A stretch of DNA of 64,000 bases from Candidatus Poribacteria bacterium (GTDB lineage: Bacteria; Poribacteria; WGA-4E; PCPOR2b), in assembly GCA_965215015.1 (NCBI GenBank), contig OZ244042.1, positions 4,928,001 to 4,992,000 on the forward strand, given 5' to 3'. The position numbers were made by a program, and so were the translations under genes. Below, piece after piece: positions 5,771 to 56,044 of the stretch; position 1 is the stretch's first letter, and each line of letters opens with the position of its first letter. The notes beneath the pieces were generated by a model. The model was given only the letters and a program-made list of their open reading frames with translations. It did not search any database and was not told where the DNA came from.

Positions 5771-8152
5771 GTGAAACACCTGAGATTTTTCCTAGCCGTA
5801 TCATTGCCCCTCGGCATTCTCGCTGCCATATCCATATCTGTCGATGCACGCCCACTAGACCCAGGGTTACATAGTGCCATTCGGTCCGCCCGAAAATATA
5901 TCAATCCCAAGTCAAGTTACGTCCCCAGCGAAATTGAAAAGTGTTTTACAGACACCTTCAACACCCTCGCCCGAAACTGGGATCGGCTGCCAGCAATCTA
6001 TCAGCGCGAGTTTCAGGGGATTTTCCTGCGCCCGGGGCAGCCCGGTAGCCCCTACAGTTCCGTCAATTTGCCAAAGAAGTTCGATACCCTCCACTTTCGA
6101 TTCCACTACACGACTGTCGGCCCGCACGCGCCACCGCTTGAAGATGTCAATCCAATGAACGGGGTGCCGGATTACGTTGATATGTGTGCCGAGGCACATG
6201 AAAAATCCTTCCATGTCGAGGTTGACCTGATGGGCTTTAAGCGACCCTTTGACGATTTTTGGGTCGCAGAAAACGGCGGCAATCATAAATACGATGTATA
6301 CCTATTTCAGTTTCCGGCACTCGGTTTTACAACAACTGATTGGTATAATGGGCGGGTACGCCCGACCGTCGCGACTTTTGGCCCCTATTTTGCCCTAAAT
6401 ACCCGTTTGTACGACTATTTTGGCAAGTTAGAGGGTATCCGATACATGGAAACAACCGCTGCCCATGAATTACTGCACGGGATTCAGTTTGCCTACAACG
6501 CACGGATGCCGGGTTGGTTTATGGAGGCTTCAGCGACATGGATTGAGTCGAAAGTATACGATGGTGGACGGGTGGACGACCTCGACGATATCCCAGATCC
6601 TGACGAAATGGGTGAGACCGATGCCTATGACTATTACACCAGACAGCTTGGCATTTTTTTAGATCAGCCTGACATTGCTCTCGACAGTCGCGTCGGTTTG
6701 CACGAATATGCAGCGGTAATCTGGGTGTTTTACATGGCAGAGCGATTCGATGTCGATATTGTCCGGCAGTTTTATGGGGATGCAACCAGAGGCTCTTACC
6801 GCGAATTTGGTAACTTTTTCAATGTCTTTGCCGACCATGGTACAACGCTAGTTGAAGCGTTTAAGACATTTACCGAGTGGAACTACTTTACTCATAGCCG
6901 TGATGATGGGAAACACTATTTCAATGGGCATCGTTTCCCGCCGGTCGCCATTCATCCGCACGATGTACATAACGCCTATCCTGTTCGCGTTGATTTCGAT
7001 TCAGAGGCGATGCCAGAGCACTTCTCGGCACGCTATATTGTTTTTGAGCCTATCCCCGGCGTTGTGATGAATGAATTCGCAATCAAAGTTGATGGCGCCG
7101 ACATCGCCCCAATTGACATGAGTTCCCTCAGTCTTACAGACCGAAACCCAATTCAGGAAGAATTGAATCGACTCAATAATTTTGGCTTGCGCGGTTGGGG
7201 TGCAAAGTTTATCGTTGAAAAGCGGGACGGAACGCACGAAGTCCGAGAAGCGTTCACTTACCAGCGTTCTCAGGAAGGGCAAATCACATTCAACGATTTC
7301 GGGGGTGATATTAAGAAGATTACGCTCATCCTGATTAATGTGCATCCGGATGTCGAGCAGGTCATTATCCCCGGCGGAGACTATTTTGGCGGTGCTGTAA
7401 GCTATATGGCAGGGCGTCCACCCGCCGGGACCCTTTCGACCCCCACCGTCTCCCAGGAGGACGACGCTAGCGTGCGTGTACAGTGGCAGCTTGAAAATTT
7501 GAGCGATATTCGTGAGGTGGTTATCGTCCGAAAGCGATATACATCGTTGATTGAAACCGATGACCCGCAGCCATTCCAGACCGCCGCGGAAGTGCTGAAC
7601 GCAGCAGATCGGGATGACAATGGCATTCCCAACGATGACATCAACATCGTCGGACGGGTCAACGCAACGGACACACACTTTCAAGACACGACGATATTTC
7701 AAGATATTGATGTAGAGGATAACCGTTTCGATCCACAGGATACCCGCTACTTTTATGCTGTTGTGCCCGTTGATGCGATTGGCATCATGGGCACGCCGAG
7801 CATTGACCCAAACGGTATCACCCCTGTCTTTAACCCGTTAGCTATCCCCGCCGCTCCGATGCAGACTCGGCTACTCCAAAGTTACCCAAATCCGTTCAAT
7901 CCAGAGGTTTGGATCCCTTACGAGTTAGGAGCGGATGCCTCCGTATCAGTTGAAATCTACAATATATCAGGGCAGTTGGTACGGACATTGCCAATCGGTA
8001 TGAGAAAGCGTGGACAGTATATCGCTAAGGATAAAGCCGTCTACTGGGATGGGCGTACCCAGTTGGGAGAGCGAGCTGCCAGCGGTGTCTACTTCTATGT
8101 GCTGAAAGCTGGCGATTATGTCTCCATGCGGAAGATGGCGATTCTGAAGTAG
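5771..8152 (+). CDS. Secreted zinc metalloprotease-like protein (MXAN_6640-like) with C-terminal FlgD-Ig/'YPNPFNP' domain
   Basis: Signal peptide, 'TAAHELLHGIQFAY' HEXXH plus 'WFMEASATW', and C-terminal 'LLQSYPNPFNPEVWIPY...WDGR...SGVYFY'. Confidence 0.8.
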   Translation: MKHLRFFLAVSLPLGILAAISISVDARPLDPGLHSAIRSARKYINPKSSYVPSEIEKCFTDTFNTLARNWDRLPAIYQREFQGIFLRPGQPGSPYSSVNLPKKFDTLHFRFHYTTVGPHAPPLEDVNPMNGVPDYVDMCAEAHEKSFHVEVDLMGFKRPFDDFWVAENGGNHKYDVYLFQFPALGFTTTDWYNGRVRPTVATFGPYFALNTRLYDYFGKLEGIRYMETTAAHELLHGIQFAYNARMPGWFMEASATWIESKVYDGGRVDDLDDIPDPDEMGETDAYDYYTRQLGIFLDQPDIALDSRVGLHEYAAVIWVFYMAERFDVDIVRQFYGDATRGSYREFGNFFNVFADHGTTLVEAFKTFTEWNYFTHSRDDGKHYFNGHRFPPVAIHPHDVHNAYPVRVDFDSEAMPEHFSARYIVFEPIPGVVMNEFAIKVDGADIAPIDMSSLSLTDRNPIQEELNRLNNFGLRGWGAKFIVEKRDGTHEVREAFTYQRSQEGQITFNDFGGDIKKITLILINVHPDVEQVIIPGGDYFGGAVSYMAGRPPAGTLSTPTVSQEDDASVRVQWQLENLSDIREVVIVRKRYTSLIETDDPQPFQTAAEVLNAADRDDNGIPNDDINIVGRVNATDTHFQDTTIFQDIDVEDNRFDPQDTRYFYAVVPVDAIGIMGTPSIDPNGITPVFNPLAIPAAPMQTRLLQSYPNPFNPEVWIPYELGADASVSVEIYNISGQLVRTLPIGMRKRGQYIAKDKAVYWDGRTQLGERAASGVYFYVLKAGDYVSMRKMAILK

Positions 8153-9561: not shown

Positions 9562-10377
9562 ATGCAGCCATTACAATTCATTAAAAAGAAGATTAAGCAA
9601 TTATTTTACGTCCTCTATCAGAAACGCCTTCAGCGGGAGGCGAGCCAATGGCAAATCCCTTATCATATCGGAATTATCTTGGACGGGAACCGCCGGTACG
9701 CGAAAACGGAAGGCTTTTTTGATGTCGCTAAACGGCAGTACGGACACTCCGAAGGAGGGGATAAGCTAGAGGAAGTCCTCCATTGGTGCGACGAATTGGG
9801 CGTCAAGATTGTCTCAATCTGGATCTGTTCCCTTGATAACTTCGTCAATCGCGAAGAGGAGGAAGTGGCGGAAATCTTCAATGTCATTGAAACAAAGATG
9901 CGATCGCTGCTCACCATCGAAGGACTCCACACCAATCAGATTAAGGTACGTCCCATGGGAGAACTGGAGTTACTGCCGCCAAGTCTCCAAGAAGCTATTC
10001 GCGATGTGGAGGAAGCGACAAAAAACTACGATAAATTTATCCTCAACGTCGCTGTGGCTTACGGTGGACGCGAGGAAATCGTCGAAGCGTTTCGGCGTTA
10101 CCTAAAATCGGAATTGAGGGAAGGCAAAGCACCGGACCAGATAGCATCGGAACTGAGTGCGGATAAGATTACCACACATCTCTACACCTCCAATCTCCCC
10201 GACCCAGATCTGATTATCCGAACCAGCGGCGAGATTCGACTCAGCGGCTTCATGCTCTGGCAAAGTGCGTATTCAGAATACTACTTCTGTGATACCTATT
10301 GGCCCGGTTTCAGGAAAATCGACTTCCTGCGGGCTATCCGGGACTATAGCCACCGGGAACGACGGTTCGGAAGATAG
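9562..10377 (+). CDS. uppS: Cis-prenyltransferase (undecaprenyl diphosphate synthase family)
   Basis: 'HIGIILDGNRRYA', 'AYGGREEI', 'PDPDLIIRTSGEIRLSGFMLWQSAYSE', 'RERRFG'. The ATG at 9547 lies in a MITE end, so 9562 is preferred. Confidence 0.93.
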   Translation: MQPLQFIKKKIKQLFYVLYQKRLQREASQWQIPYHIGIILDGNRRYAKTEGFFDVAKRQYGHSEGGDKLEEVLHWCDELGVKIVSIWICSLDNFVNREEEEVAEIFNVIETKMRSLLTIEGLHTNQIKVRPMGELELLPPSLQEAIRDVEEATKNYDKFILNVAVAYGGREEIVEAFRRYLKSELREGKAPDQIASELSADKITTHLYTSNLPDPDLIIRTSGEIRLSGFMLWQSAYSEYYFCDTYWPGFRKIDFLRAIRDYSHRERRFGR

Positions 10378-10449
10378 GCGACACGCACATACGAAAGAAA
10401 AACATCCCCCCAAGCGGAAGGAAGGGATAGCAACCAGGGGAGAGGCAAT

Positions 10450-10608
10450 CTTAATTAGGTTCGTAGTAGCGCAATTCATTGCGCGTGAGAGATGGCAACC
10501 AGGGGAGAGCCACCCTTAATTGGGTTTGTAGTAGCGCAATTCATTGCGCGTCAGGGAGGGCAACCGGTGGGAGAGGCAAGACCCTATTGTCTCATGAAAC
10601 ATTACGCC
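10450..10608. repeat. Two 65-bp GTAG-hairpin (REP-like) units
   Basis: CTTAATT.GGTT.GTAGTAGCGCAATTCATTGCGCGT at 10450 and 10515. Confidence 0.85.
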
Positions 10609-10618
10609 CAGCACCCCC

Positions 10619-11569
10619 TCAGTGCGGTAATAAGGTGGCTTTCATCTCCCCCCAGTACTGTGGGAGCAGCCCCGGTTGAGAAGGGACAGACAGACGTGGA
10701 TTCCATTCCCGCCCCGGAACATCCGCACCCGGATTATCGGTCAACTGTATCAGCTGCTTGTCAACCAAACCGAAACGGTAGATATTCCATACCCCATCCG
10801 TTTGACCAGAAAAGAGTATCGAATCCCCATCAGCAGAGAACATTGCAACATCAAAAGCCATCCGTGGAACCGGCACTCTCACCGTCTTGAACACCTTCTG
10901 CCGTCCTGCTGGGTGCAGTGTAGCAATCACCGGGAACGAACTGTTGACACTCCAATCAACGGCTTCCGTGTATAAAATCCGATTTCCCCCCGGTGACCAG
11001 TCTCCCAAAAACATCCCTGTATTCGGTTTCCGTTCAGAAACCTTCCACTGGCCTGTGCCATCTATACGGATAACATCAATATCTACACCTGATTCAAAGA
11101 GAATCCATTCCCCATCCGGCGACCATCTCGGTTTTGAGGCAAACGGTAAGTCTGTTATCTGCTTAACATTGCTACCATCGGCATCCATTATGAACAGATT
11201 AACCATCTGGTCTTCGTTGCGGTTGTGATTACTACGAAACACAATCTGATTTCCGTCAGGAGACCAGTCAGGATAACCATCAATTGCCGGCCGCCGGGTG
11301 AGATTGCGCTGATTGCTACCATCGGCATCCATTACATATACCTCCCAATTTCCATCGCGTTTGCTATCGAACGCAATTTGTCGTCCGTTAGGGGACCAGA
11401 CAGGGACGGCATCACTCGCTTCGTTAAAGGTCAGTCGTGTCTGGTTGGTTCCGTCCGAGTTCATGGTGTAGATCTCGGCGTTGCCATCTCGCTTGGAGTA
11501 AAACACAATTTTGCCCTGAAGGGAGCTCGTGGCAAGCCACAGACAAGCCACGAGCAAAGAAACGCGCAT
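10619..11569 (-). CDS. TolB-like PD40 beta-propeller secreted protein, array copy A
   Basis: Signal peptide, repeated P.WSP(N/D)G blades, C-terminal 'LLPQYWGEMK' tail, SD AAGGAGG. Confidence 0.9.
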   Translation of the reverse strand: MRVSLLVACLWLATSSLQGKIVFYSKRDGNAEIYTMNSDGTNQTRLTFNEASDAVPVWSPNGRQIAFDSKRDGNWEVYVMDADGSNQRNLTRRPAIDGYPDWSPDGNQIVFRSNHNRNEDQMVNLFIMDADGSNVKQITDLPFASKPRWSPDGEWILFESGVDIDVIRIDGTGQWKVSERKPNTGMFLGDWSPGGNRILYTEAVDWSVNSSFPVIATLHPAGRQKVFKTVRVPVPRMAFDVAMFSADGDSILFSGQTDGVWNIYRFGLVDKQLIQLTDNPGADVPGREWNPRLSVPSQPGLLPQYWGEMKATLLPH

Positions 11570-11824
11570 AAGACCTCCTTTAATCTATTTCAAAGAAATT
11601 ATCCCTTAATTGGGTTCGTAGTAGTGCAATTCATTGCACGTCAGGGAGGGCAACAGGGGGGGGAGAGGCAAGGCCCTATGGCTTGTGTTGCACTCATTCT
11701 TTACATGAGCGAAAACGGTATCCCGTCCCGATGCCGTTGTTTCATGAAACATTACGGCACCGGGACGGGATATTGCTACGAGCATCATAACTGGGACCCT
11801 GTTGCATTACGGCACATCTACCCC

Positions 11825-12775
11825 TCAGTGCGGTAATAAGGCAGATTTAATCTCCCCCCAATGCTTTGGAGCCAACCCCTGCGGTGAAACCGGCAAGCGC
11901 GGATTCCATTCGTGGGGAGAACTATCTTTGGCAGGAGAATCGGTCAACTGAAGGAGTTGACGGTCTCGGAGACGGAAACGGTAGACATCCCAGTTCCCCC
12001 CTTCCTTTCTACCGGCAAAGAGGATCGACTTCCCATCGGCACCCCAATCGGCGGCAGTCGAATCCATCTTCGGTATTGGCACCGGCTCACGTTTTTCCGG
12101 CCACAACGTCGCAATAATTATGGTTGAGTTTTTCACCGAGTCGTTGATGGAAGCCTTATACAGAATCTGTGTGCCATCCGGAGACCACCCGCCCAAAAAC
12201 ATCCCTGCCTCGGGAATAGGTTTGCTCACCCGCCGCCGTTTGGTGCCGTCGGCGTTTATCACATAAATTTGCCTCCGTTGATCTATTATTCCTCCAAAGG
12301 CGATTCTCTCCCCGTTAGGAGACCACTTCGGGGCGACGGCAAACTCTAGCTGTGTAACCTGTCTCACGTTACCGCCATCGGCATCCATCACAAAAATATT
12401 GAGATCGTGAGCATCACCGCTGTCCCGATCGCTCGTGAAGGCAATCTGTGAACCATCGGGCGACCAGTCAGGCGAGCTATCAAATGCCGGGTGCTGAGTC
12501 AGGTTCGTCTGGTTACCCCCATCGGCATCCATGACATAAAGCTCCTGGTTGCCATCCCGTTCGCTGCAAAAGACGATTTGCCGCCCGTTGGGGGACCAGG
12601 CGGGCGCAAAATCACCACCCGTCTGGTTATGCGTTAATCGTGTTTCACCTTTCCCGTCAGAACGCATCATGTAGATTTCAGTACGTCCATCCCGATGCGA
12701 ATGAAACACGATTTTACCTTGGGCGTTGCTTACGCTTAGCCAGAGACTGAGGGATATCGTTAAGAAACGCATCAT
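11825..12775 (-). CDS. TolB-like PD40 beta-propeller protein, divergent array copy B
   Basis: Signal peptide, WSPNG/WSPDG blades, tail 'LAPKHWGEIK'. Confidence 0.9.
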   Translation of the reverse strand: MMRFLTISLSLWLSVSNAQGKIVFHSHRDGRTEIYMMRSDGKGETRLTHNQTGGDFAPAWSPNGRQIVFCSERDGNQELYVMDADGGNQTNLTQHPAFDSSPDWSPDGSQIAFTSDRDSGDAHDLNIFVMDADGGNVRQVTQLEFAVAPKWSPNGERIAFGGIIDQRRQIYVINADGTKRRRVSKPIPEAGMFLGGWSPDGTQILYKASINDSVKNSTIIIATLWPEKREPVPIPKMDSTAADWGADGKSILFAGRKEGGNWDVYRFRLRDRQLLQLTDSPAKDSSPHEWNPRLPVSPQGLAPKHWGEIKSALLPH

Positions 12776-12919
12776 TCCTCCTCTATTGTATTCTAAATGG
12801 GTGCTCTACTTCCACTTTTAGTTGATGAAGTAAGCTTTCCGCGGAAGCTTCGCGAATCCAAAAAAGTAGGCGCATATACGAAAGAAAAACATCAACCGAT
12901 TAACAGCGCAAGAAACGAT

Positions 12920-13127
12920 GGGTCATGTGAAAAGAAAGTGCAAAGCACGAAGAGAAGGCCCCCTTCGTACCCCCTAACCCTCCGCAAGCGATGGGAAATT
13001 TGCAAGCTTGGGGAGAGCCACCCTTAATTGGGTTCGTAGTAGCGCAATTCATTGCGCGTCAGGGAGGGCAACCGGTGGGAGAGGCAAGCCCCTATGGCTG
13101 CTGTTGCACTCATTCTTTCCATGAGCG
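12920..13127. mobile_element. MITE-like element with one 65-bp REP unit
   Basis: Left end GGGTCATGTGAAAAGAAAGTGCA and right end TGCACTCATTCTTTCCATGAGCG form imperfect inverted repeats. Same architecture as 23247-23631 and 28138-28680. Confidence 0.7.
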
Positions 13128-13183
13128 AAAACGGTATCCCGTCCCGATGCCGTTGTCTCATGAAACATTACGGCACAGCTCCC

Positions 13184-14134
13184 TCAGTGCGGTAATAAGG
13201 GGGCTTTAATCTCCCCCCAGTACTGTGGGAGCAGCCCCTGTTGCGAAGGGACAGACAGACGGGGATTCCATTCCCGCCCCGGAACATCCGCACCCGGATT
13301 ATCGGTCAACTGTATCAGCTGCTTGTCAACCAACCCGAAACGGTAGATATTCCATACCCCATCCGTTTGACCAGAAAAGAGTATAGATTCCCCATCAGCC
13401 GAGAACATTGCGACCTTAAAAGGCCTCCGTGGAACCGGCACTCTCACCGTCTTGAACACCTTCTGCCGGCCTGCTGGGTGCAGTGTAGCCATCACCGGGA
13501 ACGAACTGTTGACACTCCAATCAACGGCTTCCGTATATAAAATCCGATTTCCACCCGGTGACCAGTCTCCCAAAAACATCCCTGTATTCGGTTTCCGTTC
13601 AGAAACCTTCCACTGTCCTGTGCCATCTATACGGATAACATCAACATCTACCCCTGATTCAAAGAGAATCCATTCCCCATCCGGCGACCATCTCGGTTTT
13701 GAGGCAAACGGTAAGTGGGTTATCTGCTTAACATTGCTACCATTGGCATCCATTATGAAAAGATTAATCATCTGGTCTTCGTTACCGTTGTGATTGCTAT
13801 CAAACACAATCTGATTTCCGTCAGGAGACCAGTCAGGATAAACATCAATTGCCGGCCGACGGGTGAGATTGCGCTGATTGCCACCATCGGCATCCATTAC
13901 ATATACCTCAGCGTTCCCATCTCGATAACTATGGAACGCAATCTGGCGACCGTTAGGGGACCAAACGGGGGTGGAATCCCTCGCCTCGTTAAAGGTCAGT
14001 CGTGTCTGGTTGGTTCCGTCCGAGTTCATGGTGTAGATCTCGGCGTTGCCATCTCGCTTGGAGTAAAACACAATTTTGCCCCAAAGGGGGCTCGTGACCA
14101 GCCAAAGGCTCGCCACGAGCAAAGAAAGGCGCAT
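13184..14134 (-). CDS. TolB-like PD40 beta-propeller protein, array copy C
   Basis: 316 aa, near-identical to copies A, D, F and G. Confidence 0.9.
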   Translation of the reverse strand: MRLSLLVASLWLVTSPLWGKIVFYSKRDGNAEIYTMNSDGTNQTRLTFNEARDSTPVWSPNGRQIAFHSYRDGNAEVYVMDADGGNQRNLTRRPAIDVYPDWSPDGNQIVFDSNHNGNEDQMINLFIMDANGSNVKQITHLPFASKPRWSPDGEWILFESGVDVDVIRIDGTGQWKVSERKPNTGMFLGDWSPGGNRILYTEAVDWSVNSSFPVMATLHPAGRQKVFKTVRVPVPRRPFKVAMFSADGESILFSGQTDGVWNIYRFGLVDKQLIQLTDNPGADVPGREWNPRLSVPSQQGLLPQYWGEIKAPLLPH

Positions 14135-14332
14135 AAAACCTCCTTCAGTCTATTTCAAAGAAATTATCCATTAATTGGGTGCGTAGTAGCGCGATTCATT
14201 GCGCGTCAGGGAGGGCAACCGGTGGGAGAGGCAAGCCCCTATGGCTGCTGTTGCACTCATTCTTTCCATGAGCGAAAACGGTATCCCGGCCCGATGCCGT
14301 TGTCTCATGAAACATTACGGCCCAGTGCCCCC

Positions 14333-15283
14333 TCAGTGCGGTAATAAGGGGGCTTTCATCTCCCCCCAGTACTGTGGGAGCAGCCCCTGTTGAGAAGGGA
14401 CAGACAGACGTGGATTCCATTCATGGGGACCGGCATCCGCCCCCGGATTATCGGTCAACTGTATCAGCTGCTTGTCAACCAACCCGAAACGGTAGATATT
14501 CCATACCCCATCCGTTTGACCAGAAAAGAGTATCGAATCCCCATCAGCCGAGAACATTGCGACCTTAAAAGGCCTCCGTGGAACCGGCACTCTCACCGTC
14601 TTGAACACCTTCTGCCGGCCTGCTGGGTGCAGTGTAGCAATCACCGGGAACGAACTGTTGACATGCCAATCAACGGCTTCCGTGTATAAAATCCGATTTC
14701 CCCCCGGCGACCAGTCTCCCAAAAACATCCCTGTATTCGGTTTTCGTTCAGAAACCTTCCACTGGCCTGTGCCGTCTATACGGATAACATCAATATCTAC
14801 CCCTGATTCAAAGAGAATCCACTCCCCATCCGGCGACCATCTCGGTTTTGAAGCGAACGGTAAGTCTGTTATCTGCTTAACATTGCTACCATCGGCATCC
14901 ATTATGAAAAGATTAAGCATCTGGTCTTCGTTGCGGTTGTGATTGCTATCAAATACAATCTGATTTCCGTCAGGAGACCAGTCAGGATAAACATCAATTG
15001 CCGGCCGCCGGGTGAGATTGCGCTGATTGCCACCATCGGCATCCATTACATATACCTCAGCGTTCCCATCTCGATAACTATGGAACGCAATCTGTCGTCC
15101 GTTAGGGGACCAAACAGGGGTGGAATCCCTCGCCTCGTTAAAGGTCAGTCGTGTCTGGTTGGTTCCGTCCGAGTTCATGGTGTAGATCTCGGCGTTGCCA
15201 TCTCGCTTGGAGTAAAACACAATTTTGCCCCAAAGGGGGCTCGTGGCAAGCCACAGACAAGCCACGAGCAAGGAAAGGCGCAT
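14333..15283 (-). CDS. TolB-like PD40 beta-propeller protein, array copy D
   Basis: 316 aa, near-identical to copies A, C, F and G. Confidence 0.9.
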   Translation of the reverse strand: MRLSLLVACLWLATSPLWGKIVFYSKRDGNAEIYTMNSDGTNQTRLTFNEARDSTPVWSPNGRQIAFHSYRDGNAEVYVMDADGGNQRNLTRRPAIDVYPDWSPDGNQIVFDSNHNRNEDQMLNLFIMDADGSNVKQITDLPFASKPRWSPDGEWILFESGVDIDVIRIDGTGQWKVSERKPNTGMFLGDWSPGGNRILYTEAVDWHVNSSFPVIATLHPAGRQKVFKTVRVPVPRRPFKVAMFSADGDSILFSGQTDGVWNIYRFGLVDKQLIQLTDNPGADAGPHEWNPRLSVPSQQGLLPQYWGEMKAPLLPH

Positions 15284-15328
15284 AAGACCTCCTTTAGTCT
15301 ATTTCAAAGAAATTATCCATTTCAAAGG

Positions 15329-15383
15329 AATTATCCCTAGTATTCATTCTGACCTCAGGGACAGGATCCTCGGCGATACCGAT
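15329..15383 (-). pseudogene. Duplicated 3' fragment of the small secreted-protein gene at 18870-19373
   Basis: 55 nt identical to 18887-18941. Confidence 0.85.
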
Positions 15384-15387
15384 AAGG

Positions 15388-15482
15388 GGCTTCATGCTCC
15401 GGCAAAGTGCGTACTCAGAATACTATTTTTGCGATACCTATTGGCCCTGCTTCAGAAAGATTGACTTCCTCCGAGCAATCCG
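15388..15482 (+). pseudogene. uppS: Diverged 95-nt fragment of the uppS 3' region
   Basis: Aligns ungapped to 10246-10340 with 13 differences, 11 of them at third codon positions ([32 protein letters not shown]). Confidence 0.9.
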
Positions 15483-15528
15483 TCGGCGTGGAGTTATCCC
15501 ACCTTTATAGGCAGAGTGCGTAGCGTCC

Positions 15529-16509
15529 TTAGGGTCGCAATACTTCAGATCTAATCTCCCCCCAGAACAGAGAGAGTGACTGCCGGGGCCTGACAGACAA
15601 TCGAGGATTCCATTCATGGGGACCGGCATCCGGCCCCGGATTATCGGTCAACTGTATCAATTTCCGGTCGGTCAGATGAAAACGATAGATATTCGAGTCG
15701 TTATTTCTCTTCCCCGAAAAAAGGATGGACTTCCCATCCCCAGCGAAGGTAGTAGTTTGGAATGGCAGCCGTGGCACCGGCACCCGGTACCATCGTTTCA
15801 CCTTCCTTCGGCCGACTAAGTTCAACGTGGCAATGACCGCAAAGGAATTCTTAAGGTTGGAGTCAACCGTCTCCTTATACAGGATCCGTTTCCCATCGGG
15901 AGACCACCCGCCCAAATGCATCCGCGTGTAAGGTCGCGGTTTTGACACCTTGAAACGACCGGTGCCATTGGCGTTGATGACAAAAATCTCCCGGCCATTC
16001 CCTATAACCCCTTCAAAAGCCATCCGTTTCCCATCCGGCGACCATTTGGGTGTTGAAGCAAATTCTAAGTCTGTAATCTGCTTGATGTTGCTCCCATCGG
16101 CGTCCATCACGAAAATGTTGAAATTTTCGTTCCGAGTGCTAGTAAACGCAATCTGTGAACTGTTGGGATGCCAATCTGCATAATTATCCAGGCCGGGATA
16201 ATGGGTCAACCTCCGTTGGTTTCCCCCATCCGCGTCCATCACATAAATCTCCGCGTTTGACTCCCCTCCATGCTTATGCGGGTCCTTATGATCATCGCGG
16301 AAGCTATGGAACGCAATCTGTCGTCCGTTGGGGGACCAGACAGGGGCAACATCTGTGGCTTCGTTAAACGTAAGTCGCACCTGACCGTTACCACTGGAAT
16401 CCATCATGTAGATTTCGTAATTTCCAGCCTGCTTGGAATAAAACACAATTTTGCCCCAAAGGGGGCCCGTGGCAAGCCACAGACAAGCCACGAGCAAGGA
16501 AAGGCGCAT
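15529..16509 (-). CDS. TolB-like PD40 beta-propeller protein, divergent array copy E
   Basis: Nearly the same signal peptide as C, D, F and G, but a diverged body with an insertion 'DDHKDPHKHGGESN'. Tail 'SLFWGEIR'. Confidence 0.9.
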   Translation of the reverse strand: MRLSLLVACLWLATGPLWGKIVFYSKQAGNYEIYMMDSSGNGQVRLTFNEATDVAPVWSPNGRQIAFHSFRDDHKDPHKHGGESNAEIYVMDADGGNQRRLTHYPGLDNYADWHPNSSQIAFTSTRNENFNIFVMDADGSNIKQITDLEFASTPKWSPDGKRMAFEGVIGNGREIFVINANGTGRFKVSKPRPYTRMHLGGWSPDGKRILYKETVDSNLKNSFAVIATLNLVGRRKVKRWYRVPVPRLPFQTTTFAGDGKSILFSGKRNNDSNIYRFHLTDRKLIQLTDNPGPDAGPHEWNPRLSVRPRQSLSLFWGEIRSEVLRP

Positions 16510-16705
16510 AAGACCTCCTTTAGTCTATGTGAAAGAAATTATCCATTAATTGGGTGCGTAGTAGCGCAATTCATTGCGCGTCAGGGAGGGCAACCGGGGG
16601 GAGAGGCAAGCCCCTATGGCTGCTGTCGCACTCATTCTTTCCATGAGCGAAAGCGGTATCCCGGCCCGATGCTGTTGTCTCATGAAACATTACGGCACAG
16701 CTCCC

Positions 16706-17656
16706 TCAGTGCGGTAATAAGGGGGCTTTAATCTCCCCCCAGTACTGTGGGAGCAGCCCCTGTTGCGAAGGGACAGACAGACGGGGATTCCATTCCCGTC
16801 CCGGAACATCCGCCCCCGGATTATCGGTCAACTGTATCAGCTGCTTGTCAACCAACCCGAAACGGTAGATATTCCATACCCCATCCGTTTGACCAGAAAA
16901 GAGTATCGAATCCCCATCAGCAGAGAACATTGCAACATCAAAAGTCATCCGTGGAACCGGCACTCTCACCGTCTTGAATACCTTCTGCCGGCCTGCTGGG
17001 TGCAGTGTAGCAATGACCGGGAACGAACTGTTGACATGCCAATCAACGGCTTCCGTGTATAAAATCCGATTTCCACCCGGTGACCAGTCTCCGAGAAACA
17101 TCCCTGTATTCGGTTTCCGTTCAGAAACCTTCCACTGCCCTGTGCCATCTATACGGATAACATCAATATCTATCCCTGATTCAAAGAGAATCCACTCCCC
17201 ATCCGGCGACCATCTCGGTTTTGAGGCAAAGGGTAAGTGGGTTATCTGCTTAACATTGCTACCATCGGCATCCATTATGAAAAGATTAATCATCTGGTCT
17301 TCGTTACGGTTGTGATTGCTATCAAACACAATCTGATTTCCGTCAGGAGACCAGTCAGGATAACCATCAATTGCCGGCCGCCGGGTGAGATTGCGTTGAT
17401 TGCCACCATCGGCATCCATTACATATACCTCAGCGTTCCCATCTCGATAACTATGGAACGCAATCTGGCGACCGTTAGGGGACCAAACGGGGGTGGAATC
17501 CCTCGCCTCGTTAAAGGTCAGTCGTGTCTGGTTGGTTCCGTCCGAGTTCATGGTGTAGATCTCGGCGTTGCCATCTCGCTTGGAGTAAAACACAATTTTG
17601 CCCCAAAGGGGGCTCGTGGCAAGCCACAGACAAGCCACGAGCAAGGAAAGGCGCAT
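16706..17656 (-). CDS. TolB-like PD40 beta-propeller protein, array copy F
   Basis: 316 aa, near-identical to copies A, C, D and G. Confidence 0.9.
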   Translation of the reverse strand: MRLSLLVACLWLATSPLWGKIVFYSKRDGNAEIYTMNSDGTNQTRLTFNEARDSTPVWSPNGRQIAFHSYRDGNAEVYVMDADGGNQRNLTRRPAIDGYPDWSPDGNQIVFDSNHNRNEDQMINLFIMDADGSNVKQITHLPFASKPRWSPDGEWILFESGIDIDVIRIDGTGQWKVSERKPNTGMFLGDWSPGGNRILYTEAVDWHVNSSFPVIATLHPAGRQKVFKTVRVPVPRMTFDVAMFSADGDSILFSGQTDGVWNIYRFGLVDKQLIQLTDNPGADVPGREWNPRLSVPSQQGLLPQYWGEIKAPLLPH

Positions 17657-17908
17657 AAGACCTCCTTTAATCTATGTGAAAGAGATTATCCATTAATTGG
17701 GTTCGTAGTAGCGCAATTCATTGCGCGTCAGGGAGGGCAACCGGGGGGAGAGGCAGTCCCCTATGGCTTCTATTGCACTCATTCTTTACATGAGCGAAAA
17801 CGGCATCCCGTCCCGATGCCGTTGTTCCATGAAACATTACGGCACCGGGACATGATGCTGCTACGAGCCTCATAACTGGGCCCGGTTGCATTACGGCCCA
17901 GCGACCCC

Positions 17909-18859
17909 TCAGTGCGGTAATAAGGGGGCTTTCATCTCCCCCCAGTACTGTGGGAGCAGTCCCTGTTGAGGGGGGACGGACAGACGGGGATTCCATTCCC
18001 GCCCCGGAACATCCGCCCCCGGATTATCGGTCAACTGTATCAGCTGCTTGTCGACCAACCCGAAACGGTAGATATTCCATACCCCATCCGTTTGACCAGA
18101 AAAGAGTATCGAATCCCCATCAGCAGAGAACATTGCAACATCAAAAGCCATCCGTGGAACCGGCACTCTCACCGTCTTGAACACCTTCTGCCGGCCTGCT
18201 GGGTGCAGTGTAGCAATCACCGGGAACGAACTGTTGACACTCCAATCAACGGCTTCCGTATATAAAATCTGATTTCCACCCGGTGACCAGTCTCCCAGAA
18301 ACATCCCTGTATTCGGTTTCCGTTCAGAAACCTTCCACTGTCCTGTGCCATCTATGCGGATAACATCAATATCTACCCCTGATTCAAAGAGAATCCACTC
18401 CCCATCCGGCGACCATCTCGGTTTTGAGGCAAAGGGTAAGTCTGTTATCTGCTTAACATTGCTACCATCGGCATCCATTATGAACAGATTAACCATCTGG
18501 TCTTCGTTACGGTTGTGATTGCTATCAAACACAATCTGATTTCCGTCAGGAGACCAGTCAGGATAACCATCAATTGCCGGCCGACGGGTGAGATTGCGCT
18601 GATTGCTACCATCGGCATCCATTACATATACCTCCCAATTTCCATCGCGTTTGCTATCGAACGCAATTTGTCGTCCGTTAGGGGACCAAACAGGGGCGGC
18701 ATCACTCGCTTCGTTAAAGGTCAGTCGTGTCTGGTTGGTTCCGTCGGAGTTCATGGTGTAGATCTCGGCGTTGCCATCTCGCTTGGAGTAAAACACAATT
18801 TTGCCCCAAAGGGGGCTCGTGGCAAGCCACAGACAAGCCACGAGCAAAGAAAGGCGCAT
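17909..18859 (-). CDS. TolB-like PD40 beta-propeller protein, array copy G (promoter-proximal)
   Basis: 316 aa. Starts 10 nt after the stop of the upstream small gene, with SD AAGGAGG. Confidence 0.9.
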   Translation of the reverse strand: MRLSLLVACLWLATSPLWGKIVFYSKRDGNAEIYTMNSDGTNQTRLTFNEASDAAPVWSPNGRQIAFDSKRDGNWEVYVMDADGSNQRNLTRRPAIDGYPDWSPDGNQIVFDSNHNRNEDQMVNLFIMDADGSNVKQITDLPFASKPRWSPDGEWILFESGVDIDVIRIDGTGQWKVSERKPNTGMFLGDWSPGGNQILYTEAVDWSVNSSFPVIATLHPAGRQKVFKTVRVPVPRMAFDVAMFSADGDSILFSGQTDGVWNIYRFGLVDKQLIQLTDNPGADVPGREWNPRLSVPPQQGLLPQYWGEMKAPLLPH

Positions 18860-18869
18860 AGGACCTCCT

Positions 18870-19373
18870 TTAGTTTATGCGAAAGAAATTATCCCTAGTA
18901 TTCATTCTGACCTCAGGGACAGGATCCTCGGCGATACCGATGAGATTGATTCGGGTGTAAGCATCAATATAAAAACGACCCCTTGGCAGTTCTCTAATAT
19001 CAGCTTCATGTGTTTTCTCTATGAAGGCACTCGAGTCATTATTTATACCCCACTCAGGGACTGTGACTATTTCGGTAGTGCCTTCAGGCGGTTTTTTCTT
19101 CACAATCATTTCTTCACTCGGCTGAAGTCGCATCACTCGATGAGTAAACTCGTAAGTTAGGTCAACTGCCTCATCGCTATCATTTTCGACGAAAAACTGG
19201 TGATAGCTATAGGTATGGGTCGCAGATTTATAGAGGTTACTGACGGTTACATCCCAGTATACCTCTTCGTTGTACCCATCAGTTGTTTCCAAGGCATAAA
19301 CCCCTACCACGGAAATCAATAGAACCGTCATAGCGATAAAAAGCGTTGATTTGCATCTTTGTGAAGTCAACAT
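18870..19373 (-). CDS. Small secreted beta-rich hypothetical protein (167 aa)
   Basis: SD GGAGGAG before ATG 19373, signal peptide ending 'VGVYA', C-terminus 'RDNFFRIN'. Confidence 0.75.
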   Translation of the reverse strand: MLTSQRCKSTLFIAMTVLLISVVGVYALETTDGYNEEVYWDVTVSNLYKSATHTYSYHQFFVENDSDEAVDLTYEFTHRVMRLQPSEEMIVKKKPPEGTTEIVTVPEWGINNDSSAFIEKTHEADIRELPRGRFYIDAYTRINLIGIAEDPVPEVRMNTRDNFFRIN

Positions 19374-19524
19374 GAGAACTCCTCCTCTGATTGGTAAGGA
19401 ATGCTTTGGCATCCCATTGGGTGAGAACCGTCAACTCTGAGTTGATTCACATATCCGATGAATATGTGGTTCTCTTTTTCACCAAGTATTCACGGTGTTG
19501 CCAACTTGGTTTCACCCTTTACGA

Positions 19525-19764: not shown

Positions 19765-20715
19765 TCATCGGATGCCATATTTTTTTAACCGGCGGGATAA
19801 AGCATGTCGGCTCAATCCAAGTTGCTGGGCGGTTTTAGTAATGTTACCTTGATTCGCCGCCAAGGCGCGACGAATCTGCTCCTGCTCGGCAAGCATTTCC
19901 TCGACCGGGGCTGGTAACGGCCTCGCTGTGCCAATCCCTGTTCGTGAAAAAGAAAACATCTCAACGTCAGGAAAGTGAAAATGGAGGTGTTTGGGTTGAA
20001 TCGCCCCCCCTTCACTTACAATAAACGCATGCTCAATCATGTTCCTCAATTCACGCACATTGCCCGGGAAGGCGTATTCCTTCAAAGCCTCGGCAGCTTT
20101 AGGAGTCAATGGCGGGGTTGATACTCCCATTTGAGTCGCAACCGCACTCAGTTGGTATTTAGCAAGGAGCAGAATATCCTCTTTCCTTTCGCGTAGGGGT
20201 GCAATCTCAATCAAAATTCCAGCCAAGCGAAAGTAGAGGTCTGCCCGAAATAGTCCTGCCTCGACCTTAGCCTTGAGGTCCGCATTGGTGGCCGCTATTG
20301 TCCGAATATCTACCTTTTTACTCTGCGTTGCACCGATTGGTGTGATGACACTATTGTTCAGTGCCCGTAGGAGTTTAACCTGGGTTTCGATTGGCATGTC
20401 ACCGACCTCGTCGAGAAAGAGTGTCCCCTTGTCAGCACGTTCAAAGCAGCCTATCTGATCCGCTATTGCTCCAGTGAATGCACCACGGACATGGCCGAAG
20501 AAGATGGACTCTGCCAGTTCAAAAGGAATCGCACCACAATTGACGTCCACAAATGGTGCCGATGCCCGGGGCCCTCTAGCACGAATGGATCGGGCAACCA
20601 GTTCTTTACCGACGCCGGTTTCCCCGGTAATTAAAACCGAAGTACTGTCGTTGTTGCGGAGTTGGCGAATGGTTGTCTGAATGGCTCGCATAGTATCACT
20701 GTCACCAAGTAACAT
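19765..20715 (-). CDS. sigma54-dependent enhancer-binding protein lacking an N-terminal sensor domain
   Basis: Walker A GETGVGKE, GAFTGA, Walker B LFLDEV, 'FRADLYFRL', 'FPGNVREL', Fis-type HTH. The AAA+ domain starts at the N-terminus. Confidence 0.9.
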   Translation of the reverse strand: MLLGDSDTMRAIQTTIRQLRNNDSTSVLITGETGVGKELVARSIRARGPRASAPFVDVNCGAIPFELAESIFFGHVRGAFTGAIADQIGCFERADKGTLFLDEVGDMPIETQVKLLRALNNSVITPIGATQSKKVDIRTIAATNADLKAKVEAGLFRADLYFRLAGILIEIAPLRERKEDILLLAKYQLSAVATQMGVSTPPLTPKAAEALKEYAFPGNVRELRNMIEHAFIVSEGGAIQPKHLHFHFPDVEMFSFSRTGIGTARPLPAPVEEMLAEQEQIRRALAANQGNITKTAQQLGLSRHALSRRLKKYGIR

Positions 20716-23246: not shown

Positions 23247-23631
23247 GCCTCATGTTCAAAGAAAGTGCCCCTTCGTACCCCCCAAGCCCCCCTGCAAGCG
23301 GAAGGAGGGAGCACAACCGGGGGAGAAGTCAGCTTAATTAGGTTCGTAGTAGCGCGATTCATTGCGCGTCAGGGAGCACAACCGGGGGAGCGGCAATCTT
23401 AATTGGGTTCGTAGTAGCGCAATTCATTGCGCGTCAGGGAGCACAACCGGGGGAGAGACACCCTTAATTAGGTTCGTAGTAGCGCAATTCATTGCGCGTC
23501 AGGGAGGGCAAACAAGGGAGAAGTCAGCTTAATTAGGTTCGTAGTAGCGCAATTTATTGCGCGTCAGGGAGCACAACCAAGGGAGAGGCAAGGCCCTATG
23601 GCTGCTGTCGCACTCATTCTTTCCATGAGCG
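23247..23631. mobile_element. MITE-like element with four tandem 65-bp REP units
   Basis: Units start at 23333, 23398, 23463 and 23528. Ends GCCTCATGTTCAAAGAAAGTGC and GCACTCATTCTTTCCATGAGCG. Confidence 0.8.
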
Positions 23632-28137: not shown

Positions 28138-28680
28138 GGCTCATATTAAAAGAAAGTGCAAAGCACGAAGAGAAGTGCCCCTTCGTACCCCCCAAGGCCC
28201 CCTAACCCCCCGCAAGCGAGGAGAGGGATGGCAACCAGGGGAGCGGCAATCTTAATTGGGTTTGTAGTAGCGCAATTCATCGCGCGTGAGAGAGGGCAAC
28301 CAGGGGAGAGCCACCCTTAATTGGGTTTGTAGTAGCGCAATTTATTGCGCGTCAGGGAGGACAACCGGGGGAGCGGCAATCTTAATTATGTTCGTAGTAG
28401 CGCAATTCATGGCGCGTCAGGAATGACAACCAGGGGAGAGACAATCTTAATTAAGTTTGTAGTAGTGCAATTCATGGCGCGTCAGGGAGGACAACCGGGG
28501 GAGCGACAAGCTTAATTGGGTTTGTAGTAGCGCAATTCATGGCGCGTCAGGGATGACAACCAGGGGAGAGACAATCTTAATTAAGTTTGTAGTAGTGCAA
28601 TTCATGGCGCGTCAGGAATGACAACCAGGGGAAGAGGCAAGGCCCTATGGCCTCTGTTACACCCATTCTTTATATGGGCG
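28138..28680. mobile_element. MITE-like element with six tandem 65-bp REP units
   Basis: Units start at 28251, 28316, 28381, 28446, 28511 and 28576. Left end GGCTCATATTAAAAGAAAGTGCA. Confidence 0.8.
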
Positions 28681-41178: not shown

Positions 41179-42156
41179 CTACGAAATTCCCAACTTCTTT
41201 AACTTAGAACGGAAAGTGGAGTAGGGGATGCCGAGGTTTTTTGCGGCCTGGCGGCGATTCCATCGAGTTCCTTCAAGTGCCTGCAAGATCCGCTCGTACT
41301 CGCTTTCGCCTGACGATTGGTCATATTGGGACTGCCGCTTTTCCAATGCGTCTCCTTGAATATTAAGATGTTTGACTCCTATCACCGAAATCTTTGGCGG
41401 ACAAAGAACCGCGGTGCGTTCAACGATGTTCTGCAACTCACGTACATTGCCCGGGTATTGATAATCCAGAAGGAACGATTGAGCCCCTTCTGAAAAGCCG
41501 TCAAAGCTGCGCCCACTTTTGGCGGTATATGCTTCCAGAAAATAGTCAGCCAACGGTAGGATATCCTCGGGGCGTTCCCGAAGCGGTGTTAAGTGGATAG
41601 GAAAAAGGTTGAGGCGATAGAATAGATCGCTGCGGAACCGCCCAGACTCGACAAGGTACGCGGGATTTCTATTGAATGCGCTGATAATACGCACCCGGAA
41701 GGAGATCTCCAGAGCACCGCCAACACGTCGCAGGGTCTGGTTATCGAGGACCCGTAGGAGCTTCGCTTGTATGCGGAGTGAGAGGCCAGCAGCTTCATCC
41801 AGAAAAAGCGTACCGTTATTTGCCATCTCAAAGTAGCCAGCTCTATCCGCCGTTGCATCGGTGAACGCTCCTTTGACGTGGCCAAAGAGTTCGCTTTCGA
41901 CCAGCGACTCTGGCAACGCCGAGCAGTTCACACCAACAAACGGTTGCTCTTCCAAAGACGATTGAGAGTGAATCGTTCGGGCGACCACCTCTTTTCCTGT
42001 ACCAGTTTCGCCGGTGAGGAGAATCCTATCAACATTTGCTCGGACCGCCTGCCGGATGCGCTCTCGCACCAGTTGGGTGGCGGGACTGTTTCCCACAAAG
42101 TTTGGATTTTGTATCCGTGGCTGGCGGTGGCTTGTTCGTCGGTTATCCATATCCAT
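41179..42156 (-). CDS. Second sensor-less sigma54 enhancer-binding protein
   Basis: GETGTGKE, GAFTDA, LFLDE, FRSDLFYRL, PGNVREL, HTH, with only ~20 aa before the AAA+ domain. Confidence 0.88.
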   Translation of the reverse strand: MDMDNRRTSHRQPRIQNPNFVGNSPATQLVRERIRQAVRANVDRILLTGETGTGKEVVARTIHSQSSLEEQPFVGVNCSALPESLVESELFGHVKGAFTDATADRAGYFEMANNGTLFLDEAAGLSLRIQAKLLRVLDNQTLRRVGGALEISFRVRIISAFNRNPAYLVESGRFRSDLFYRLNLFPIHLTPLRERPEDILPLADYFLEAYTAKSGRSFDGFSEGAQSFLLDYQYPGNVRELQNIVERTAVLCPPKISVIGVKHLNIQGDALEKRQSQYDQSSGESEYERILQALEGTRWNRRQAAKNLGIPYSTFRSKLKKLGIS

Positions 42157-55067: not shown

Positions 55068-55961
55068 ATGACATTCAGTGAAAGTTGGTTGGTGTTAGAA
55101 CCCGACCTAGAGACCGTCTTTGCCCATGAGACAGACCCGCTCAAGGCACTTGTGGACGCCCACATCGCCGGTATTGCTCTGCGTGGTGCCTATAATCCAG
55201 ATCACTGTAGTGGATTAATGCAGCGATTCATTGAGCGGGGTATGATGCGTGACCCGGACCGATCAAACCGGGAAGAGGATACATACCAATTCGCGGGGAG
55301 TGCACAGACCCGAATCGATATTGGTTCGAGCTTGGTCAACCGTGCACGCGGCGGTCTGGCAGTATCAGATGACCCTACCGAGAACAAGGACACTTTCCTT
55401 GAACACTCCGCGAGTACGCATGAACTCTTCAGCCACCTATTCGATGGGTTTGACAATCCAGTGGATACCCTCTACAATTGTCTCTCCGCACTAGCGGTGA
55501 ACAAGCAGGTCAAGGTCGCCCGTGAACCCGATGGACGCCTCTACGGGCCCGCAATCTTTCGGATTCACTATGAAGGCCACGAATACGTTCCCCACATCAA
55601 TCATGTCGCGATAGACGACAAGCTGTTCAACTATGAGGTCTCCCGTTTTACACACCAGCTTGCTGGCCTCATCTGTATACAGAATTCCGCCCATGACGGG
55701 GGCAGTCCCCACGCTGTTATCCATCGCTGCGTTTGGAGTCCGGAGGTGCAAGACCATCTCTCGGAGGGCACCTACCACGAATACGCCGCACAAAACAGGA
55801 TTGAACAGCAGCAAATCGAGGTACAGCCGGGTGATTTCTATCTGTTCAACAGCGGTTGCATCCACCAAGTGGCCGCTGTAGAGGGTGATATTCCTCGAAC
55901 GGTTTTGGCGACCTTTATCGGCTATTCGGAAGAGGATGACGAAATCTTTGTCTGGGCGTGA
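55068..55961 (+). CDS. 2OG-Fe(II) oxygenase-like protein
   Basis: 'PHINH', 'PGDFYLFNS..IHQV', downstream Arg, SD AGGAGG. Confidence 0.7.
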   Translation: MTFSESWLVLEPDLETVFAHETDPLKALVDAHIAGIALRGAYNPDHCSGLMQRFIERGMMRDPDRSNREEDTYQFAGSAQTRIDIGSSLVNRARGGLAVSDDPTENKDTFLEHSASTHELFSHLFDGFDNPVDTLYNCLSALAVNKQVKVAREPDGRLYGPAIFRIHYEGHEYVPHINHVAIDDKLFNYEVSRFTHQLAGLICIQNSAHDGGSPHAVIHRCVWSPEVQDHLSEGTYHEYAAQNRIEQQQIEVQPGDFYLFNSGCIHQVAAVEGDIPRTVLATFIGYSEEDDEIFVWA

Positions 55962-56044
55962 TACTTCACATACTCATATCAGGAGGAAAATTTGATGAAA
56001 TAAAGTCGCAACAGCCCTGCGTTCCATCTTCGGGAGAAGTAACT

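Follow-up and report, generated by a model that had tools for sequence, protein, structure and literature searches.

Mosaic tandem genes for predicted exported PD40 propellers in Candidatus Poribacteria and their probable re-assortment by interlocus gene conversion

Seven complete open reading frames (ORFs) for propeller proteins lie in tandem at positions 10619-18859 of a stretch of Candidatus Poribacteria DNA (the window: 64,000 nucleotides (nt) of contig OZ244042.1), and they raise the question of how close neighbours come to differ in the same few patches, combined differently from copy to copy. The copies are lettered A to G along the window; all seven are on the minus strand, so that G is the first gene of the array and A the last. 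The five most similar copies (A, C, D, F and G) are mosaics at the DNA level, beyond what homoplasy gives. The process responsible is probably interlocus gene conversion within an expanded family of 31 putative binder paralogues, re-assorting the patches of a candidate ligand pocket.

The five similar copies, with 91-97% protein identity to one another, each encode 316 amino acids and occupy 10619-11569 (A), 13184-14134 (C), 14333-15283 (D), 16706-17656 (F) and 17909-18859 (G). Copies B (11825-12775, also 316 amino acids) and E (15529-16509, 326 amino acids) belong to divergent subfamilies, with 55% and 61% amino acid identity to A, respectively. A GGAGG-type ribosome-binding site stands just ahead of the ATG of each gene. 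Every protein begins with a short hydrophobic, signal-peptide-like leader, on the strength of which export is predicted, continues with a PD40 propeller of TolB type with six blades, and ends in a short, disordered C-terminal tail whose WG motif is invariant across the seven genes. All seven match PD40 (PF07676) at 97.7-113.3 bits, against a gathering cut-off of 20.9 (E=1.2e-28 for G). A scan for promoters and terminators returned consensus matches only, including a terminator-like hairpin between C and B (12942-12973, minus strand), and left the operon structure undecided.

A first-pass annotation, made from the sequence alone, had proposed that residues on one face of the propeller are shuffled combinatorially among the near-identical copies, and the patches that it listed are all present in the alignment. 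Copies A and G carry ASDAV and ASDAA, respectively, together with FDSK..W, where C, D and F have ARDST and FHSY..A. Other patches divide the copies differently: IDG (A, F and G) against IDV (C and D), QITD (A, D and G) against QITH (C and F), DWS (A, C and G) against DWH (D and F), and RMAFDV (A and G) or RMTFDV (F) against RRPFKV (C and D). The claim that all four combinations occur holds both for QIT(D/H) with DW(S/H) and for QIT(D/H) with RMxFDV/RRPFKV. Among the five, DAGPHE is found only in D, the others reading DVPGRE.

Variation among these five copies affects 100 of 951 nt and 82 codons (35 that change the protein and 47 that are synonymous only), and any two genes differ at 32-64 sites (3.4-6.7%). 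There are 45 parsimony-informative sites, over which eight of the ten possible 2:3 splits occur (AG 19, CF 7, CD 6, AD 4, DF 3, CG 2, FG 2 and AC 2). The four-gamete test finds 385 of 990 site pairs incompatible, with a minimum number of recombination events (Rmin) of 11; p is 0.005 by the pairwise homoplasy index (PHI) and 0.0005 by the neighbour similarity score (NSS). The best single tree leaves 20 of the 45 informative sites off-tree. When sequences were simulated on this tree alone, with 1000 replicates under each of three settings of rate heterogeneity, the mean number of off-tree sites was 2.2, 4.3 or 5.9, and the maximum was 14. A 3SEQ-like maximum-descent test over 60 ordered triplets singles out F as the child of D and G (p=5e-5, or p=0.003 after correction for the 60 triplets), with eleven further triplets below 0.006 uncorrected; in this test and in the amino acid alignment the 5' part of F is D-like and most of its 3' part G-like.

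The pattern extends to synonymous-only sites, that is, sites in codons whose amino acid is constant, where incompatibility affects 133 of 253 pairs (Rmin 9, NSS p=0.03, PHI p=0.046), so convergent selection cannot explain it. The recombination or gene conversion deduced in the first-pass annotation is thus borne out by PHI, NSS, Rmin, the 3SEQ-like test, the tree simulations and the synonymous-only mosaic. The idea of shuffled residues needs one adjustment: whole DNA segments move, synonymous sites included, and not face residues as such. Across the 96 biallelic variable sites, transitions and transversions number 46 and 50, a high transversion share for point mutation, and the near-equal ratio would fit imported multi-nucleotide patches.

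Several exchanged tracts can be delimited, all on the minus strand. The first-pass annotation had reported DNA common to D and the divergent copy E at DAGPHE, and an exact 28-nt run is found there (14412-14439 in D, 15605-15632 in E), within which 11 or 12 positions separate D from each of the copies A, C, F and G; its substituted core is 12 nt long (14423-14434 in D, 15616-15627 in E). The first ~60 nt of E are likewise 96-98% identical to those of D, F and G, though protein identity between the subfamilies is ~61%. A second region, gene nt 150-253, is a deep haplotype pair in which the ASDA/ARDST and FDSK..W/FHSY..A patches are coded (11317-11420 in A, 13882-13985 in C, 15031-15134 in D, 17404-17507 in F and 18607-18710 in G). 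The A/G and C/F types differ at 19 of 116 positions over nt 145-260, compared with 3-7% for whole genes, and 16 of the 19 informative sites that split A and G from C, D and F fall within the block. Here D has the C/F alleles except at the synonymous nt 168, 186 and 189, which carry A/G alleles and mark a tract of 22 to 28 nt (gene nt 168-189). Copy D therefore combines an E-type DAGPHE patch with a short A/G-type tract inside a C/F-type block. Finally, RRPFKV is encoded by a C/D-type block at gene nt 710-735 (C 13400-13425, D 14549-14574).

The most likely process behind these tracts would be homologous recombination of direct repeats with one another, in the form of interlocus gene conversion or unequal crossing-over, with RecA-type recombination as the presumed agent. 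The array would have grown by tandem duplication, at least one duplicated segment having taken both flanks along, after which the five similar copies, and in places also E, have probably exchanged short tracts of roughly 20-120 nt. The variation is confined to a few two-allele patches that code for loops at one mouth of the propeller tunnel, the site at which TolB binds its ligands, and exchanges that re-assort these patches would leave each copy with its own putative pocket on a constant scaffold. The genome carries two RecA-family genes and MutS. The two RecA-family genes, at contig positions 4242169-4242954 and 2269144-2269926, have nearly equal scores (435.6 and 435.4 bits).

Where the variable residues lie in the protein was judged with an AlphaFold2 model of copy G, built on 118 aligned sequences (predicted local distance difference test score 87.2, predicted template modelling (TM) score 0.83). 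The model has 24 strands in six groups of four, the first beginning at residue 20, directly after the leader, and a disordered tail at residues 295-316. Its best Foldseek matches are TolB propellers, with 2w8b_A at the top (E=3.4e-17, TM 0.73). The first-pass annotation had placed the changes mostly in the loops before P.WSP and after IAF, and 21 of the 26 variable propeller positions do fall in or beside these loops, as counted by eye on the amino acid alignment and strand list with adjoining strand ends included. When faces are assigned by loop parity (each loop of a propeller meander opens on the face opposite to that of the loop before), 17 of the 26 variable positions are on the face that bears these loops, as are 97 of the 244 remaining positions (Fisher p=0.011). 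No such bias is seen for synonymous-only codons (14 of 39, p=0.48). Pooling eight further paralogue groups gives 134 of 259 variable positions on this face, where the background is 42% (p=0.001). The positions that vary among the five copies are also the more variable ones in the wider family, with an entropy of 2.16 bits against 1.10 bits elsewhere across 31 paralogues (p=4.5e-8) and of 2.05 against 1.10 bits across 118 homologues. Calling this face the "top" one, as had been done, is a matter of convention.

That this is the ligand face of the propeller had also been suggested, and the comparison with TolB agrees. According to PMC2821528, residues in a "central canyon" of TolB contact the TolB boxes of colicins A and E9, and E9 competes with Pal there. 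The array proteins were aligned by profile to a TolB chain whose numbering offset of 19 was confirmed by residue identity at 14 of the 15 contact residues listed in that paper, F423 being a serine in the chain. In this alignment V170, Q172, P201, L202 and M203 of TolB correspond to array positions 24, 26, 52, 53 and 54, and F219, H245, L268 and T291 to positions 70, 96, 123 and 145. Positions 52, 54, 70 and 123, the equivalents of the colicin contacts P201, M203, F219 and L268, vary among the five copies; variable positions 55, 68, 75, 98 and 140 are in the same loops as aligned contacts. The remaining TolB contacts (T305-D307, P312, K422 and F423) occupy the same repeat positions in other blades. 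It follows from the alignment of the contact positions that the variable face is the counterpart of the TolB ligand canyon. If the pocket does bind ligands, candidate residues for its specificity are 52-55, 68-75, 98, 123, 140, 207, 237-240 and 284-287.

The array proteins are nonetheless not TolB. They have the fold and the PD40 repeat family of the TolB C-terminal propeller (PDB 2w8b, 1c5k, 2hqs and 3iax), and the canyon residues align to loop positions that vary among them, but TolB's N-terminal alpha/beta domain is lacking (316 amino acids, compared with TolB chains of 391-439 residues), a conserved C-terminal tail is added, and there are 31 paralogues where TolB is one gene. Against the TolB equivalog model TIGR02800, copies G, B and E score 226.9, 181.8 and 152.7 bits, short of the cut-off of 343.15, and the best-scoring stretch in each lies within positions 203-406 of the 418 in the profile. 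No Tol or Pal family was matched in a scan of 46 window ORFs, and elsewhere in the genome no search for tolQRA-pal was made. The sub-threshold scores, the missing N-terminal domain and the lack of Tol-Pal neighbours together set these proteins apart from TolB.

A number of results weigh against the proposal that conversion re-assorts patches of a selected pocket. By the method of Nei and Gojobori (NG86), the ratio of nonsynonymous to synonymous substitution rates (dN/dS) for the ten pairs is 0.14-0.33, with dS of 0.09-0.18. On the variable face the ratio stands at 0.37, over the remainder of the propeller at 0.12, and no class reaches 1, so that the bias toward one face could come from weaker constraint alone. 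For patch codons chosen post hoc it reaches 0.76, but the proportion of synonymous differences (pS) is raised there as well, at 0.30. These values suggest older or imported patches that are now re-assorted, rather than sites on which positive selection has freshly acted. The faces were assigned from strand topology and loop parity plus the TolB sequence register, and not from model coordinates. When only sites in amino-acid-changing codons are considered, PHI (p=0.86) and NSS (p=0.68) are non-significant. In a genome-wide search for donors of the nt 150-253 block, neither type was matched above 93% over 59 nt. In all sequencing runs consulted, the near-identical copies are held only as pieces of 123-323 nt, too short for long-range phasing of the patches.

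It may be, then, that the conversion is real and the variation neutral, the face loops being simply the least constrained part of the protein, with no selected repertoire of binding specificities. We give this reading somewhat less than an even chance. The values of dN/dS below 1 in every class and the raised pS in the patches speak for it, as does the modest size of the face enrichment (65% here and 52% in the other groups, each against 42%). Other observations are harder to accommodate: the variable positions coincide with ligand-contact positions of TolB, they are the most variable ones across the 118 homologues, and this genome keeps 31 intact copies where the eight congeneric genomes yield 1-16 matches at E<=1e-60. 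As dN/dS nowhere reaches 1, usefulness of a repertoire of pocket combinations to the cell is likewise a possibility that we hold at a little under even.

A less likely variant concerns the route of exchange. The segments may have been re-assorted between strains, imported by homologous recombination or moved by unequal exchange between sister chromosomes, and not converted within one chromosome. Such a route would agree with the donor search, in which this genome yielded no source for the two types of the nt 150-253 block, and strains do differ, as the B region of run X1 (below) indicates. A further combination of alleles also exists in the protein database: one variant (P0001), encoded on a 2,774-nt contig, has at 35 of 35 variable positions an allele known from the five copies, in a combination of its own, and adds 4 new residues. 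Because that contig is short, P0001 is weak evidence of re-assortment. On the other side, the run common to D and E and the leader common to E and its neighbours link adjacent genes of one chromosome. The two routes are compatible with each other and leave the same signature, and they are inseparable with these data.

An error of assembly or polishing, in which mixed reads from near-identical copies produced a chimeric consensus, is very unlikely. The concern is a natural one, given repeats of ~1.2 kb that are 93-97% identical and that the runs hold only as short contig pieces. The genome is nevertheless a single contig of 5,943,281 nt (98% complete) that crosses many such arrays, which suggests reads longer than the repeats; the 32-64 differences between any two genes are enough to distinguish long reads, and the duplication scar described below and the unique spacers anchor each copy. 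The single contig, the number of differences per gene pair and the unique spacers are what make a chimera unlikely. The same kind of mosaic is found, moreover, in a second array, the four copies at 2.91 Mb, with 844 of 1326 site pairs incompatible. Contigs from run X3 fill all 30 bins at >=98% and show a single differing letter; X6, a run of the same study, has contigs in 29 of the 30 bins at >=98%, with three differing letters. Both B and E are spanned whole in X3 and X6 contigs with zero differences, and one Logan contig covers 11711-13052 without a difference in either run. Run X1, from another study, fills 26 of the 30 bins, the four empty ones not being read as absence, and in the B region it has 10 differing letters and a 42-nt skip. 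A 299-nt contig of X1 that lies on G has C/F alleles at gene nt 367 and 375, which would make another combination; it was not counted, as simplification of repeat contigs could produce such a sequence. A raw Hi-C run, X7, yielded 13 reads, each of which fits only in part.

Programmed diversification, whether through a diversity-generating retroelement, through a site-specific shufflon or from silent cassettes that feed an expression site, is still more improbable, even though variation in discrete patches on a putative binding face is what such systems produce. No reverse transcriptase (RVT_1) match was found in the 98%-complete genome, and no family of recombinases, integrases or transposases was matched by the 46 window ORFs scanned. 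The first of these results, together with the presence of all types of substitution (46 transitions and 50 transversions, with many changes synonymous), excludes a diversity-generating retroelement. Silent-cassette variation was rejected on the seven full-length ORFs, each of which has its own GGAGG-type site and start codon. In the antigenic-variation systems of Neisseria (pilE/pilS) and Borrelia (vlsE), short-tract, non-reciprocal exchange with cassettes produces new combinations of variable segments, as in the array; there, however, a single expression site is fed by silent partial cassettes, whereas here seven intact genes have their own start signals. Parallel point mutation under selection, with no exchange of DNA, would account for shared states at positions that vary across the whole family, but it is barely conceivable given the incompatibilities at synonymous-only sites (133 of 253 pairs, Rmin 9), multi-nucleotide patches that are identical in DNA, and tree-only simulations that never reach the observed off-tree count even with strong rate heterogeneity.

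Interlocus gene conversion thus remains the preferred reading, and its closest parallels are paralogue families, tandem or dispersed, that evolve in the same way, such as the bab/sab adhesin genes of Helicobacter pylori and the opa genes of Neisseria. In those families too, complete and separately translatable paralogues exchange short tracts, giving mosaic surface segments on a conserved frame. Their scaffold is an outer-membrane barrel, whereas that of the array is a soluble beta-propeller in an uncultured Poribacteria lineage, and no phase-variable repeats were seen here.

The spacers record something of how the array was built. Directly upstream of D, at 15324-15386 (minus strand), is a 63-nt copy (97% identity) of the 3' end of the ORF at 18870-19412, taken from 18882-18944; that ORF flanks the array beyond G. 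Next to it, between E and D at 15385-15482 (minus strand), 98 nt reproduce, at 86% identity, the 3' end of the undecaprenyl-diphosphate synthase gene (copied from 10243-10340); this gene, identified by PF01255, flanks the array beyond A. Both fragments lie within 245 nt upstream of D, and since they copy the 3' ends of the two outer flanks, 15324-15482 is the scar left at the junction of a tandem duplication whose segment extended into the flanks on both sides. A simple duplication of a G-F-E block into D-C-B was rejected, as E and B belong to different subfamilies and the spacer forms are off that period.

The spacers other than the one upstream of D have a conserved element of ~190 nt that contains a 65-nt palindromic unit, and single 65-nt units are found in 5 of the 6 intergenic spacers. 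Downstream of A, at 10426-10579 (strand not assigned), this palindrome-bearing unit is present in 2.4 tandem copies. Tandem runs also occur at 23306-23592 and 28224-28640, the three runs holding 2.4, 4.4 and 6.4 copies, and the core of the unit has up to 84 BLAST matches in the genome. It looks like an extragenic repeat of the repetitive extragenic palindrome or bacterial interspersed mosaic element (REP/BIME) type. An Rfam scan of 8-30 kb found one tRNA only, and the spacer element has no curated family match.

Beyond the window, the genome has 31 full-length paralogues in ~10 subfamilies, mostly in tandem, with 77-97% amino acid identity within subfamilies. In the paralogue tree E groups with a set at 0.9 Mb, and E and B fall in different subfamilies. 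The nearest relatives outside this genome are in Candidatus Poribacteria metagenome-assembled genomes (52-63% identity), other phyla reaching at most 51%. All 8 of the other genomes of the same genus that were compared have matches at E<=1e-60, none above 66% identity, and none of 4 genomes from other families of the order has a match at that threshold. A scan of a wider genome collection likewise gave nothing above 66%, and one of metagenome contigs returned no relative above 51% identity.

PD40 is one of the eukaryote-like repeat domains of sponge symbionts, alongside ankyrin, TPR, LRR, WD40 and NHL; the closest relatives of the array proteins are those of Poribacteria genomes. That sponge microbiomes are enriched in PD40 and TolB-like domains has already been reported (PMC9531527, PMC5735121), and the available portions of these papers give domain counts and describe no tandem arrays, mosaics, variable face or tail. 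Literature on TolB-like or propeller proteins of Poribacteria, on PD40 in sponge symbionts and on the tail motif was searched as well, and no account of the arrays, their mosaic structure or the tail was found in it.

The mechanism alone is textbook concerted or mosaic evolution, as in any multigene family. What the locus offers is a quantified case in which an expanded binder family in an uncultured symbiont lineage would gain new pocket combinations without new mutations. A more ambitious interpretation, which we consider improbable, is that the arrays are a standing combinatorial library of exported binding pockets kept by Poribacteria, with selection acting on the repertoire. The scaffold, the leader and the phylum-specific C-terminal tag would then be the constant parts, and short-tract conversion would re-assort a small pool of pocket alleles. 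If that were so, each strain might display its own specificities toward host or phage ligands, and the arrays would correspond, in bacteria, to receptor repertoires that gene conversion assembles. Targets of the putative binders may include host matrix, food particles or phages.

The C-terminal tail is found well outside the array. It is a disordered segment of ~25 residues that ends in WG[E/D/Q][I/V/L/M][K/R] followed by 2-6 residues (for example at window positions 17909-17990). In the whole genome, 37 of 11,369 frames of at least 100 codons have the WG motif in their last 25 residues, and the motif is matched 77 times anywhere in six frames. The 37 proteins comprise 23 with PD40 and 14 without. 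Ten of the proteins with this tail were scanned for families, giving three Kelch propellers, four lectin-like Laminin_G_3 proteins, one distant PD40 protein and two with no family match, all with signal-peptide-like starts. No Pfam or NCBIfam model covers the tail. A tail common to unrelated lectin-like and Kelch proteins, all apparently exported, points to a set of displayed or secreted binders, and it is possibly an undescribed sorting or docking tag.

The propeller proteins do not match the type A C-terminal sorting domain of the type IX secretion system (T9SS; TIGR04183/PF18962), a beta-sandwich of ~70-80 amino acids. That domain is matched by an MXAN_6640-type metalloprotease of 793 amino acids with an HExxH motif (PF18962 E=3e-5, TIGR04183 28.9 bits), encoded at 5771-8152, ~2.5 kb from the array with two genes between, so the genome uses a T9SS sorting signal besides the short WG tail. 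Two further observations were made elsewhere in the window. At 55958-57250 a single ORF fuses DarT, a thymidine ADP-ribosyltransferase acting on single-stranded DNA, to a Macro domain, and by its domain content would be a DarT-DarG-like pair in one protein. The ORFs at 19765-20715 and 41179-42156 encode sigma-54 activators with AAA+ and helix-turn-helix domains and, as called, no receiver or sensor domain.

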